From: a virus
Lineage: Duplodnaviria; Heunggongvirae; Uroviricota; Caudoviricetes
Length of the DNA: 12,085 nt
Strand: one strand, 5' to 3'
Virus record (IMG/VR): IMGVR_UViG_2529293043_000033
Position numbers and translations under genes: made by a program. The stretch's first letter is position 1. Each line of letters begins with the position of its first letter. Below the pieces are notes generated by a model. That model did no database searches, had not been told where the DNA came from, and worked only from the letters and a program-made list of their open reading frames with translations. Below are positions 3,039 to 6,682 of the stretch, piece by piece.

Positions 3039-3515
3039 TTAAGTTCCTGTCTTGGTGATGTTCTGGCTTTTCCGTTTTGATTCTTGATTTTTCAGATAGT
3101 TAGCTACCTTCATTTCCATTGCGGCAATGTAGGCACGAACGTCATGATCAACCCAACTAGGCTCCGTAGCATTTCCAGATAAGAGGAAAGCCACAATTGC
3201 TCTTTTTTCATCAGAGGCGGCTTGATAAAGGCTGTTTATGTCTAAAAGTTCACTTTTTGTATCTGAAGTGGATGGGGTTGGTATGGGGTATTCGTTAAGC
3301 CCCCAATGCTCTGGACCAACCACATCAGAAAAGAAACGCCATAGTTCTGGAAGTTTGTCTTTACTTATCGAACCTTTCTTAATCCAGTCATGGATTGATG
3401 GTGGTTGGACTTTGAAATGACGTGCGATTTCCGCCTTTGATTTGACGGCTCCTGATGCAATTTTTTTGTTAATGGCCTGCTCTATCGCTCGGCCTAAGTC
3501 TTTACCACTAAGCAT
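3039..3515 (-). CDS. racR: Prophage repressor, RacR-like (CI functional analogue)
   Basis: 158-aa ORF divergent from a YdaS/Cro-like gene and flanked on both sides by repeated operator palindromes. N-terminal HTH-like segment (AEIARHFKVQPPSIHDWIKKG). Size and context match the RacR-YdaS-YdaT immunity module. Confidence 0.75.
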   Translation of the reverse strand: MLSGKDLGRAIEQAINKKIASGAVKSKAEIARHFKVQPPSIHDWIKKGSISKDKLPELWRFFSDVVGPEHWGLNEYPIPTPSTSDTKSELLDINSLYQAASDEKRAIVAFLLSGNATEPSWVDHDVRAYIAAMEMKVANYLKNQESKRKSQNITKTGT

Positions 3516-3639: not shown

Positions 3640-3963
3640 ATGAAAAAAGATAACTATTCATTCAAACGAGCTTGTGCTGTTGTCGGTGGGCAATCAGCAA
3701 TGGCTAGGCTTTTAGGTGTATCTCCTCCAAGCGTAAATCAATGGATCAAAGGTGTACGTCAGTTGCCTGCTGAGAGATGTCCTGCGATTGAACGAGCAAC
3801 AAAAGGTGGTGTCCTGTGTGAAGAACTTCGTCCTGATGTTGATTGGACATACTTACGACGCTCGTCATGTTATTCGCAGAATATGTCGATGAAGCAACCA
3901 AATGACGAAAACGATCATACCCGAAGCATCAAGAGGCAAATGATTCATGAAAATCAAACATGA
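3640..3963 (+). CDS. ydaS: Cro-like HTH regulator, YdaS family
   Basis: ATG 3640 with GGAG 9 nt upstream, about 20 nt from the predicted PR start site. MKKDNYSFKRACAVVGGQSAMARLLGVSPPSVNQWIKGVRQLPAERCPAIERA closely matches what I recall of Rac YdaS. The track's 3619 GTG start is less likely. Confidence 0.8.
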   Translation: MKKDNYSFKRACAVVGGQSAMARLLGVSPPSVNQWIKGVRQLPAERCPAIERATKGGVLCEELRPDVDWTYLRRSSCYSQNMSMKQPNDENDHTRSIKRQMIHENQT

Positions 3964-4372
3964 GCACATCCGCATGGCGATGAATGCCTGGGCATATCCT
4001 GATGGTGAGAAAGTTCCTGCAGCTGAAATAGCCCGGACTTATTTCGAACTGGGGATGACGTTCCCGGAACTGTACGACGACAGCCATCCGGAAGCCCTGG
4101 CTCGTAATACCCAGAAAATTTTCCGTTGGCTGGATAAAGACACCCCTGATGCTGTTGAAAAAATGCAGGCTCTGTTACCGGCGATCGAAAAGGCAATGCC
4201 GCCTCTGCTGGTGGCCCGTATGCGCAGTCACAGCTCTGAATATTACCGTGAGATCGTCGAACGGAGGGATCGGCTGGTGAAAGATGTGGATGATTTTGTC
4301 GCAGCGGCGATCGCCTGGGGCACCCTGACTAACAGTGGGGGTCAGCCTGGTAATGCTGTTGTCGTGCATTGA
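3947..4372 (+). CDS. ydaT: YdaT-like protein (toxic when derepressed; CII-like functional analogue)
   Basis: 141 aa, overlaps the ydaS-like stop by 17 bp. N-terminus MKIKHEHI and its position immediately after ydaS match the Rac/CP-933P arrangement. Confidence 0.7.
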   Translation: MKIKHEHIRMAMNAWAYPDGEKVPAAEIARTYFELGMTFPELYDDSHPEALARNTQKIFRWLDKDTPDAVEKMQALLPAIEKAMPPLLVARMRSHSSEYYREIVERRDRLVKDVDDFVAAAIAWGTLTNSGGQPGNAVVVH

Positions 4373-4440: not shown

Positions 4441-5478
4441 ATGGCTAATGCCTGGCTCAGATTGTGGCATGACATGCCAAATGATCCCAAATGGCGAACC
4501 ATTGCCAGGGTCTCAGGACAGCCAATCGCAACAGTGATGGCGGTGTATATCCACCTTCTGGTGAGTGCGTCACGAAATGTCACGAAATGTCACGGCGAGT
4601 CACTACGTGGTCACATTGATGTCACGACGGAAGATTTAGCAAGTGCGCTTGATGTGACGGAAGACGTGATTGATTCAATTTTGCATGCAATGCAGGGGCG
4701 AGTTCTGGATGGCGATCTTATTTCCGGATGGGAAAAACGCCAGGTGATGAAGGAGGATAACGGTAATGTTTCGCAAACCGCAAAATCCCCGGCAGAGCGC
4801 AAGAGAGCGCAGCGGGAGCGGGAAAGACTGCGGGAGCAGAACACTGATTGTCACGATGAGTCACGACGCGTCACGCATATGTCACGACAAGTCACGACAG
4901 ATACAGATACAGATAAAGAATTAAACCCCACACATAACGCGCGCATGCGCGAGAGTGCTCCAGCCAGTGAGTCGAATGGCGCGCCGTTGCAGACAGCAGA
5001 ACCTGAATACCCGGATGGCCTGAGCGAACCGATCGGGAAATTTCCGATGACTGGTGTCTGGCGGCCGTCGCTGGATTTTCGACAGCGGGCTGCATTGTGG
5101 GGTATGGCTCTGCCTGAGCCTGAGTTTACACCTGCTGAGCTTGCCGCATTCCGGGATTACTGGATGGCGGAGGGGAAGGTTTTCACGCAGGTTCAGTGGG
5201 AGCAGAAATTTGCCCGTCACGTGCAGCACGTCAGGGCACAGGTAAAACCAGTCAGCAAGGGGGTAAGCCATGCAGCACCAGGTGGCACCGCATCACGGGC
5301 AGTTCAGGAAATTCGGGCAGCACGTGAACAGTGGGAACGTGAAAACGGATTTATCAGCAACGGAAACGGCCTGGAAGCTGTGGGAACTTATGGGGGAGGT
5401 GTATTCGAACCGCTGGACCCAGAAGAACGGGGCTGCGCCGTCGAAGCTCTGGATTGCTCAGATTGGCGCGATGACTGA
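4441..5478 (+). CDS. Replication initiator, lambda O-like (YdaU/DUF1376-type N-terminus), contains the origin iterons; C-terminus possibly extended
   Basis: ATG 4441 with GAGG 5 nt upstream (the track's GTG 4435 is less likely). N-terminus MANAWLRLWHDMPNDPKWRTIA. Two iteron arrays lie inside the gene, as in lambda O. The last roughly 70 codons overlap the P-like gene out of frame and are low-complexity. Confidence 0.75.
   Translation: MANAWLRLWHDMPNDPKWRTIARVSGQPIATVMAVYIHLLVSASRNVTKCHGESLRGHIDVTTEDLASALDVTEDVIDSILHAMQGRVLDGDLISGWEKRQVMKEDNGNVSQTAKSPAERKRAQRERERLREQNTDCHDESRRVTHMSRQVTTDTDTDKELNPTHNARMRESAPASESNGAPLQTAEPEYPDGLSEPIGKFPMTGVWRPSLDFRQRAALWGMALPEPEFTPAELAAFRDYWMAEGKVFTQVQWEQKFARHVQHVRAQVKPVSKGVSHAAPGGTASRAVQEIRAAREQWERENGFISNGNGLEAVGTYGGGVFEPLDPEERGCAVEALDCSDWRDD
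4569..4626. repeat. Iteron array I: six GTCAC(G) repeats at 10-11 bp spacing (candidate ori)
   Basis: GTCACGAAAT GTCACGAAAT GTCACGGCGA GTCACTACGTG GTCACATTGAT GTCACGACGG; copies start at 4569, 4579, 4589, 4599, 4610 and 4621. Confidence 0.75.
4850..4914. repeat. Iteron array II: five GTCACG repeats at 10-11 bp spacing, followed by an (ACAGAT)x3 tandem repeat
   Basis: GTCACG at 4850, 4860, 4870, 4881 and 4891; tandem hexamer 4897-4914 (encodes TDTDTD in the O-like protein). A GCGCGCATGCGCG palindrome follows at about 4929-4942. Confidence 0.75.
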
Positions 5479-5932
5479 ACAGCAAATCCGGCAGGTCTGC
5501 CGTCAGTGCATGGACCGCTGCCGGGCGGGTGAAACGTGGCCTCCGGACCTGGCTGAGTTTGTGGCGTTGATTTCGGAGAGCGGGGCAAATCCATTTGGCC
5601 TGACGGTGGATGCCGTGATGGAGGAGTACCGTCGCTGGAGGAATGAATCCTGGCGGTACGACGGGAGTGATAAATACCCGTGGCCACAGCCGGTGCTGTA
5701 CCACATTTGCCTCGAGATGCGTGACAGAGGGATTGAGCGGCAGATGACGGAAGGTGAGTTAAAACGACTTGCAGAACGGCAACTGACGAAATGGGCAAAG
5801 CAAGTTGGTAACGGGATGAGTATTCCCCCGATCCGGAGACAACTCGCATCGCCGAAGTGCCCGCAAGGGCCAACGCCAATTGAATTACTGAAACAGGAAT
5901 ACGAGCGCCGGAAGGCGGCTGGTTTTGTTTGA
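5270..5932 (+). CDS. Replication protein P-like (helicase loader, lambda P family)
   Basis: ATG 5270 with AAGGGGG SD 6 nt upstream. Recalled similarity to lambda P (TWPPDLAEFVALI versus PFLPSPGQFVAWC; YDGSDKYPWPQP versus YPDAESYPWKSN) falls at comparable residue positions, and the 220-aa length is close to lambda P (233 aa). An alternative coupled start ATG 5471 (ATGACTGA with the O stop) cannot be excluded. Confidence 0.7.
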   Translation: MQHQVAPHHGQFRKFGQHVNSGNVKTDLSATETAWKLWELMGEVYSNRWTQKNGAAPSKLWIAQIGAMTEQQIRQVCRQCMDRCRAGETWPPDLAEFVALISESGANPFGLTVDAVMEEYRRWRNESWRYDGSDKYPWPQPVLYHICLEMRDRGIERQMTEGELKRLAERQLTKWAKQVGNGMSIPPIRRQLASPKCPQGPTPIELLKQEYERRKAAGFV

Positions 5933-5965: not shown

Positions 5966-6682
5966 ATGGAAACCGTATCTGACGCACTGAAAGCACTGAA
6001 AAGAGCCTCTTCACATGTGGTGGCAGCTCGCCTTGGAATTAGTCGTGAAGAGGCTGTCAACGAACTGTGGAAACTGAAACGCCGTGGAGAAGCGGATAAC
6101 AAGGGGGCGATATGGTGGCTGACTCAGGCTGGTGAAAGTGAACCGGTGTCACCGGTACCGAAAGTGACGGCGCAAATGCTGACAGAGGCGATTGAACAAC
6201 ATGGCCCACAAACGGCGGATGAACTGGCATTGATGTTCGGAATTACCTCCCGCCGGGCGAATTCATCGCTGGCAATGGCAATCAGCAAAGGGTGTCTGAT
6301 TCGCGTGAATCAGGATGGTAAATTTCGTTACTGCATACCGGGCGTTGATTTACCGGCAGAGCCGAAAGCAGCATCCGTAGCTGAAACGGAGGGTAAAGCC
6401 CTTCCTCAGCCAGCTGGTGTTGCGTTACCAGTCCAGGAAACGGCTGCACAGGAAGAAATTAAAACAGAAGCGGTGGAGGACATTGTGAAGTTGCAGCAAT
6501 CGTTCACTGAAGCGAAAGCAGATGACCTGATTCTACCATCGCTGCATGTGGCTAACCGCGAGCTGCGCCGGGCGAAAAGTAATGTTCAGAAGTGGGAGCG
6601 AGTCTGTGCTGCGCTACGGGAACTGAACAAACACAGGGATATTCTCCGGGATATTACCGCCACCAGAGAGCAGCAGCGGTGA
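5966..6682 (+). CDS. Hypothetical protein with two winged-helix-like segments and a C-terminal coiled-coil (possibly DUF1627-like)
   Basis: ATG 5966 with GGAGG 8 nt upstream; the track's start at 5948 is a TTG. HTH-like segments [19 protein letters not shown] and [24 protein letters not shown]. Confidence 0.55.

Follow-up and report, generated by a model that had tools for sequence, protein, structure and literature searches.

We examined a 12,085-nucleotide (nt) stretch of DNA from a virus of the class Caudoviricetes (IMG/VR record IMGVR_UViG_2529293043_000033; hereafter the window), which carries a phage replication module in which an O-like initiator gene is followed by a P-like helicase loader gene. 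The window is 100% identical to an Escherichia coli O157:H7 prophage adjoining potC/potD in strain TR01, and its replication module or close relatives were matched in 1,263 of 5,426 complete E. coli genomes. The initiator frame is open from 4435/4441 to a TGA at 5476-5478. The loader frame lies one base downstream (the O frame +1); it is open from the TAA at 5264-5266 onward, with its ATG at 5270. An original prediction, made from the letters of the window alone, had put the resulting O/P overlap at about 209 bp, which is exact as read from the sequence. Comparison with related loci indicates that this overlap is very probably genuine, old and conserved, with the loader initiated within the initiator gene.

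Start positions were compared across 37 genome loci from 30-odd species, three Vibrio phages and the window itself, which de-replication at 93% nucleotide identity reduced to 32 loci. These non-redundant relatives come from Enterobacterales and Vibrio phages, with P identities of 28-94%. The genes and signals that define the overlap, with counts from these 32 loci and mean Shine-Dalgarno (SD) duplex energies, are as follows; AF2 stands for AlphaFold2, aa for amino acids, and PGAP for the NCBI Prokaryotic Genome Annotation Pipeline.

4441..5478, + strand: O-like initiator gene, 345 aa (open reading frame, ORF; identical PGAP annotation in NZ_CP033605.1)
5270..5932, + strand: P-like helicase loader gene of the lambda P family, full 220-aa form (Pfam, conserved ATG, homologs, AF2 model)
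5270..5478, + strand: candidate dual-coding overlap, 209 nt, covering O residues 277-345 and P residues 1-69 (sequence, relatives)
5257..5264, + strand: SD AAGGGGGT of the loader, inside the O frame, where it codes for K-G-V (7/8 match to AAGGAGGT, spacing 5 nt)
5390..5392, + strand: internal ATG, P residue M41 (ATG in 28/32, CTG in 4; −5.3 kcal/mol)
5471..5473, + strand: internal ATG, P residue M68, within ATGACTGA (ATG in 21/32; −4.3 kcal/mol)
5476..5478, + strand: initiator stop TGA (sequence; equivalent stop position kept in relatives)

The position equivalent to 5270 is an ATG in all 32 loci. A GGAGGT-like SD is kept 4-9 nt upstream of it in the relatives, and the mean anti-SD duplex energy is −8.9 kcal/mol; the strong SD that had been predicted before this ATG is thus borne out, with seven of the eight bases of AAGGAGGT present in AAGGGGGT. 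The P frame upstream of 5471 encodes the motif A-W-x-L-W-E-x-M-G-E-I-Y-S-N-R-W-x-x-K-N-G-x-x-P-S-x-L-W-I-A-Q-I-G, which is kept at 50-60% identity. Residues W38, W61, N53 and G54 are invariant (32/32), W49, K52 and P57 are present in 31/32 loci, and A34, W35 and L37 in 26-27/32; R48 is also conserved among relatives at 28-60% overall identity. The loader scores 60.9 bits against the Pfam family Phage_lambda_P (PF06992; cut-off 26) over residues 55-187, a match that begins upstream of M68, and phmmer pairs it with the lambda P chain 8v9t at E = 8.7e-4. The gene lies directly downstream of an initiator gene bearing probable origin repeats, and homologs of 216-223 aa are found across Enterobacterales.

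An AF2 model of the loader, built with 75 sequences, has a mean predicted local distance difference test score (pLDDT) of 79. Residues 1-24 are predicted to be disordered and are followed by predicted helices at 24-45, 47-53 and 59-66, with pLDDT of 83-89 over residues 31-70. In a Foldseek search of the PDB, the top matches were the lambda P chains of 9oa1, 9oa2 and 8v9s (probability 1.0, 202-222 columns aligned), and there was no significant match besides the lambda P chains of DnaB-lambda P complexes. By this model, P residues 1-28 and 29-107 would correspond to lambda P domains I and II. A product begun at 5471 would lack 67 residues and, with them, three helices and about 40% of the domain II equivalent. 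We also found orphan P-like genes in Erwinia spp. (L029, 2926-3552, 208 aa; L038, 2974-3543, 189 aa) that have no initiator upstream and still start ahead of the AW.LW motif. Their neighbors, apparently host genes, look like a TtcA-like enzyme and a phosphotransferase system (PTS) transporter when the translations are judged by eye, and these orphans could be prophage remnants or domesticated loaders. Because of the universal ATG, the strong SD, the conserved residues upstream of 5471, the modeled helices and the starts of the orphan P genes, we conclude that P very probably starts at 5270.

Public annotations of this family do not agree on the start. PGAP begins P at ATG 5471 in this prophage, giving a 153-aa form, and phage records begin it at 5471 or even later (140 aa). 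The versions held in protein databases, of 220-223, 177-181, 153 and 140 aa, reflect starts at the equivalents of 5270, 5390 and 5471 and further downstream. The 220-221-aa form is already predicted by some gene callers, and the overlap is implicit in some records. From the conservation and the model, we judge the RefSeq/PGAP start at 5471 to be a truncation of the loader.

The other side of the overlap is the C-terminal tail of the initiator, 77 aa long, and its frame is kept open in the relatives as well. In 33 of the 37 genome loci, P contains the end of an initiator-type ORF that runs in the −1 frame relative to it and stops 149-227 nt past the conserved ATG. About 35 related loci keep both frames open across the matching 149-230 nt. 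Among 33 enterobacterial loci, 31 have the O stop at P residue 69-74; two lineages, L022 and L039, stop 12-17 codons earlier. Across relatives the tail carries the motif G-G-x-x-[H/N]-A ... S-R-A-V-Q-Q-I-R-A-A-R-E-x-W-E-R ... G-x-A-x-x-G-x-x-G-x-x-L-x-E-P-L-D-x-E-E-[R/W]-G ... [L/M]-D-x-x-D, the first part of which is the loader SD and ATG as read in the O frame (GGNGG for the SD, xAT-Gxx for the ATG). The tail had been described as Gly-rich and low-complexity; it is acidic and moderately Gly-rich (11/77 residues), yet more than a low-complexity stretch, as a conserved helix motif is present. A scenario in which this initiator lost its original stop and gained an extension, also raised initially, does not fit a 77-residue tail whose motif, length and stop position are kept across Enterobacterales and Vibrio phages.

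We estimated how often such openness would arise by chance by resampling synonymous codons. With the P protein fixed, the O frame stayed open with a probability of about 0.05 per locus, or about 0.18 for the distal half alone; with the O protein fixed, the P frame stayed open with a probability of about 0.30. Across 33 loci, none of 340 dicodons at which a T-ending P codon would make an O stop has such a codon, a zero that holds by construction, since counting ended at the first O-frame stop. The rest of P gives the informative figure: there, T ends 27% of the codons in this dicodon context, a rate at which only about 4% of loci would be expected to stay open. Third-position diversity in this stretch of the overlap is 0.51, which argues that synonymous sites have turned over many times despite the shared ancestry of the loci. 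An exhaustive search with the 77-aa tail returned 24 matches, mostly C-terminal tails of 317-360-aa proteins and too few for a census of initiator bodies, and a search with a 91-aa tail against an index of 5.8 billion proteins matched only E. coli fragments and was uninformative. At one locus (L036, Leclercia adecarboxylata, ~3100-3190), the P frame ends at 82 codons, its translation enters O-tail sequence and the O frame drifts from the tail motif, which suggests a single indel inside the overlap, either in a decaying prophage or as a sequencing error.

The pattern of diversity across the overlap indicates which frame is constrained where, and divides the overlap into two parts.

5272..5352, + strand: O-dominated half, with the O-tail helix motif S-RAVQ(E/Q)IRAAREQWER over variable P residues 1-28 (O-frame periodicity, AF2)
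5353..5478, + strand: P-dominated half, in which P residues 29-69 form helices of the lambda P domain II equivalent (P-frame periodicity, AF2)

At 5272-5352 (O residues 278-304), diversity at O codon positions 1, 2 and 3 is 0.47-0.51, 0.40-0.48 and 0.64-0.66, respectively. Here the third position of O is the most variable, so the O frame is the one under selection and dominates. This signal emerged only after re-alignment in the O frame; when the codons of P residues 1-40 were aligned by the P protein, no periodicity was seen. At 5353-5475 (O residues 305-345), the corresponding values are 0.41-0.55, 0.26-0.44 and 0.24-0.29, and P dominates: position 3 of P, which is position 1 of O, is the most variable, and position 2 of P, which is position 3 of O, is mostly the least variable. 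The frame that sets the codon periodicity thus changes near nt 5350, from O to P. In the AF2 model of the initiator, residues 301-345 are predicted to be disordered, and the tail is Gly/Asp/Glu-rich in the P-dominated half. One site in that half still carries a clear O signature. The codon for P K52 is AAG in 28 loci and AAA in 3, compared with 127:169 for Lys codons elsewhere in P, a bias that keeps Glu, rather than Lys, in the O tail. Taken together, these comparisons indicate that purifying selection is detectable for each frame within the overlap, and that the more constrained segment of each protein overlies a poorly conserved, mostly predicted-disordered segment of the other.

Several observations weigh against this reading. 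The tail helix, predicted at O residues 285-301 (nt 5293-5343), has low AF2 confidence. In the P-dominated half, P largely determines the O sequence: K-N-G in P forces E-E-[R/W]-G in O, with the choice of R or W being a synonymous AAC/AAT choice in P, and the alternation of D and G in O tracks that of I and V in P. Stop avoidance, the K52 codon bias and the conserved end are the only O-specific signals there, and synonymous-codon entropy at conserved P columns of the distal half is 0.78, against 0.81 in the rest of P (p = 0.37). Selection at the amino-acid level in the two frames thus looks almost complementary rather than simultaneous. On the loader side, conservation is poor over P residues 1-28, most of which are predicted to be disordered, and M41 may serve as an additional minor start, although this is not needed to explain the data. 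Finally, the loci share ancestry, and per-locus probabilities would overstate significance if multiplied. Weighing these points against the conserved ATG, the SD, the O stop and the two open frames, we put the probability at roughly 0.85 that this is a genuine, ancient and conserved overlap, in which the initiator is read through to TGA 5476-5478 and the loader is initiated independently from the SD at 5257-5264 and ATG 5270. A genuine long out-of-frame overlap was the third alternative of the original prediction, and is the one that these data support. The same prediction had named, as evidence that would speak against it, initiators of equal length with a conserved tail together with P homologs starting at the equivalent of 5471; we find the conserved tail, but not P homologs with that start.

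If the overlap is accepted, the distal part of the O tail, after about residue 304, could nonetheless have no function of its own and be a tolerated, disordered read-on, with only the proximal helix mattering. We regard this as doubtful, though several distal features speak for it: P sets the sequence there, extra synonymous constraint is not significant, the model predicts disorder, and L022 and L039 do stop early. A dispensable tail, however, should have been truncated in many lineages, since P-silent nonsense mutations in it would carry no cost. Instead, the distal frame is open where the resampling predicts about 0.18 per locus, nearly all enterobacterial loci end within the same few codons (31/33), and the K52 bias preserves Glu in O.

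A second possibility is that P starts at ATG 5390 (M41), giving a 180-aa protein, with ATG 5270 unused and a real overlap of only 89 nt. PGAP picks this start in many Citrobacter, Klebsiella, Salmonella, Brenneria and Pectobacterium homologs (177-181 aa), the codon is ATG in 28/32 loci, and the residues that it would remove include the variable 1-28. This start is nevertheless improbable. M41 is CTG, coding for Leu, in four loci, and lies inside the predicted helix 24-45, just after the conserved A34, W35, L37 and W38; the ATG at 5270 is universal and has a much stronger SD. A disordered N-terminus is also no obstacle, since lambda P likewise has a disordered domain I of about 40 residues before domain II (PMC12661323). 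It might be that both the 5270 and the 5390 starts are used.

Less probable still is that the overlap is an annotation illusion, with P made from the coupled ATG 5471 (ATGACTGA) and the upstream P frame open by accident. This was the second alternative raised for the window, and it has some appeal: PGAP and several phage records use 5471 or a later start, the ATG overlaps the region of the O stop in a classic coupling layout, and chance alone would leave the P frame open in about 30% of sequences given the O protein. As the main start, however, it is contradicted by its absence from 11 of the 32 relatives and its weak SD, by P residues before it that are invariant or nearly so at 28-60% identity and fall partly within the Pfam lambda P match, and by codon periodicity that follows the P frame ahead of it. 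The 153-aa product would also be without the three helices noted above, and the orphan P genes begin upstream of the AW.LW motif.

A programmed +1 ribosomal frameshift or transcriptional slippage yielding an O-P fusion protein is very improbable, for although P is in the +1 frame of O and public assemblies hold single ORFs with DnaT and lambda P domains (481-496 aa), these fusions form clusters of only one or two sequences from raw-read assemblies, the universal SD and ATG of the P frame explain independent initiation, a prfB-type O-frame stop or hungry-codon context is absent at the SD (no systematic search for shift sites was made), and a −1 slippery heptamer would lead into the third frame, not P. 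The fused ORFs join an initiator body (DnaT or DUF1376) to P (P0159, 496 aa; P0196, 481 aa; P0099, 333 aa; clusters of 1-2 sequences) and are probably indel errors or pseudogenes within the overlap.

The overlapping arrangement extends beyond the Enterobacterales. A translated search of a phage collection returned 181 records, 124 of them Vibrio phages. In the three Vibrio phages examined, P again lies in the O frame +1, with P ORFs of 219-221 codons and overlaps of about 195-230 nt, and the tail motif recurs in O (for example ...QQIAAARARAQ...MGNDGG..., and GQVHQEERGG over DKFIRKNG of P). Because these phages share the frame relation, the overlap and the tail motif, the arrangement predates the divergence of the enterobacterial and Vibrio phage groups. 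In the same three records (L043-L045; Vibrio phages D72, D68 and vB_VpM-pA2SJ1), the annotation gives the P-like gene as a short 'hypothetical protein' whose start lies beyond, or barely within, the end of the O-like gene. The homologous P frame begins about 200 nt before that start, and P is probably truncated in this way in most of the 124 Vibrio phage records.

The tail and P form a unit that stands behind at least five unrelated initiator bodies: Phage_rep_O (L020), DUF1376 (L021, L023), DnaT-like (the window, L033 and many others), a body resembling the lambda O C-terminus (L039), and several without a Pfam match. Relatives bearing DUF1376 share only the C-terminal 54-70% with the initiator of the window. 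Lambda-type P loci, in contrast, lack the tail, with overlaps of 17 nt in L040 and L041 and 4 nt in lambda. From the absence of the tail at lambda-type P loci and the presence of tail plus P behind unrelated bodies, we infer that the tail travels with the type of P and not with the initiator body. Two recombination joints recur. One is at the start of the DnaT-like region, with E. coli relatives matching only from nt ~4901-5013 onward, and the other, seen with non-DnaT bodies, is immediately upstream of the tail. The initiator of L022 has the N-terminal domain of the one described here and a different middle domain.

The remaining features of the module lie mostly within the initiator gene.

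5041..5241, + strand: coding region of the DnaT-like DNA-binding domain (aa 201-267, Pfam)
4569..4627, + strand: putative iteron cluster 1, 4x GTCACGR, inside the initiator gene (repeat count)
4850..4897, + strand: putative iteron cluster 2, 4x GTCACGA, in the part of the initiator gene coding for the disordered linker (repeat count, AF2)

The initiator is named 'phage replisome organizer' or 'DnaT-like ssDNA-binding domain-containing protein' at NCBI (ssDNA, single-stranded DNA). The AF2 model and Pfam divide it into an N-terminal helical/winged-helix-like domain, a disordered linker, the DnaT-like ssDNA-binding domain and the 77-aa C-terminal tail. Its sole Pfam match is the DnaT DNA-binding domain (PF17948; aa 201-267, 62 bits against a cut-off of 25). 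Pfam found neither DUF1376 (PF07120) nor an N-terminal Phage_rep_O domain (PF04492) in this copy, and the YdaU/DUF1376 label first given to it does not apply. The window has eight GTCACGR repeats where 2.8 would be expected by chance. All eight are on the + strand and within the initiator gene, and they probably serve as origin iterons, in a placement like that of lambda. Directly upstream of the initiator is a YdaT-family gene ('toxin YdaT', 3947-4372) in a RacR/YdaS/YdaT-type control-region layout. Downstream of P, at 5966-6682, lies a gene for a DUF1627 protein (Pfam E = 2e-81), and one database protein (P0030, 291 aa) has the P and DUF1627 domains fused.

Same-strand, out-of-frame overlaps that arose by overprinting are classical in phages, examples being phiX174 A/B/K and D/E, the MS2 lysis gene and lambda Rz/Rz1. 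The overlap described here resembles these in that constraint in one frame lies over predicted disorder in the other, with a biased composition in the frame that follows. It differs in that it joins the ends of adjacent genes whose products are expected to cooperate, in that the dominant frame switches midway, and in that it moves as a unit beneath many upstream gene bodies. A close comparison is the O-P module of lambda, which has the same order of initiator and loader, repeats within the initiator gene, and a loader of the same Phage_lambda_P family and fold, although the two loaders are only about 16-18% identical in structural alignment. The O/P overlap of lambda is 4 nt (ATGA), compared with 209 nt here, and lambda O has no 77-aa tail, whereas the initiator here has a DnaT-like domain and no Phage_rep_O. 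In lambda, the C-terminal domain of O (residues 156-299) binds the DnaB-P complex, and P consists of a disordered domain I (~1-39) and a compact domain II (~30-119) (PMC12661323). Lambda P is toxic on over-production (PMC3640518).

The closest precedent is a longer initiator of lambda, O', which is reported to arise by read-through of the O UGA and to end within the part of P that codes for its N-terminus (Yates et al. 1977, PNAS 74:689, as cited in PMC3640518). Like the product described here, it has extra C-terminal residues, encoded by O-frame reading of the DNA that codes for the N-terminus of P. However, O' is a minor product of stop suppression, whereas the initiator described here has no stop to suppress, and its extension is constitutive, conserved and twice the length. 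In lambda, a further 34 codons of the O frame are open after the UGA; the extension they encode is basic and has no sequence similarity to the tail.

Other known systems share parts of the module. The Pfam DnaT DNA-binding domain links the initiator, at aa 201-267, to E. coli DnaT (primosomal protein I), but the initiator is larger, with its own N-terminal domain, iterons and tail, and a role in PriA-dependent restart is not implied. Some Vibrio virus-derived helicase loaders (VdhL) are about 30% identical to lambda-P-domain proteins (PMC11087808). Like the phage homologs of VdhL, the Vibrio relatives described here adjoin lambda-O-like genes, and they may correspond to VdhL loaders; the overlap is not mentioned in the VdhL paper (PMC11087808). 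Nor is it mentioned in a paper on Stx-phage replication types (Eru types), which does not cover this module (PMC8044961). Long same-strand overlaps are known in phages, and we found no description of one between initiator and loader in the open-access full-text literature, where absence is no proof of novelty.

These observations support a model in which initiator and loader are each initiated separately and the 209 nt are read in two frames. Over the first ~80 nt, selection acts on the tail helix of the initiator, with the predicted-disordered N-terminus of the loader following passively. Over the last ~125 nt, it acts on the first folded helices of the loader, and the predicted-disordered, acidic tail of the initiator follows passively, kept free of stops up to its conserved end. 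Ribosomes translating O would cross the start site of P, which could plausibly couple or limit synthesis of a potentially toxic loader. By analogy with the P-binding C-terminal domain of lambda O, the tail, or at least its conserved helix, is probably a loader-specific adaptor of the initiator. We propose this role because the lambda O C-terminal domain engages the P-DnaB complex. The hybrid-phage genetics of Furth and Dove reportedly point in the same direction. With the adaptor written over the N-terminus of the loader, recombination that swaps initiator bodies would always carry the tail and its own loader together.

A more tentative extension of this model is that the overlap encodes the initiator-loader interface itself, with the tail helix and acidic tail binding the N-terminal region of the loader encoded by the same nucleotides. 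We consider this possible but unlikely. If true, the contacting surfaces would be inseparable by recombination and would co-evolve base by base. The overlap would then be a 'self-linked' specificity cassette, older than the split between enterobacterial and Vibrio phages, that leaves origin-binding domains swappable and helicase recruitment intact.

A start at 5270 would have practical consequences as well. The RefSeq 'replication protein P' of 153 aa (WP_000139462.1) would lack 67 N-terminal residues, including invariant tryptophans, with a 180-aa form standing in its place in other species, and cloning or modeling the annotated P would mean working on a truncated loader. For the evolution of overlapping genes, the locus may offer a natural example, about 200 nt long and found from Enterobacterales to Vibrio phages, in which constraint is handed over between frames. 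Finally, the occurrence of tail plus P behind unrelated bodies suggests a simple way for mosaic phages to keep the specificity between initiator and loader while exchanging their origin-binding modules.

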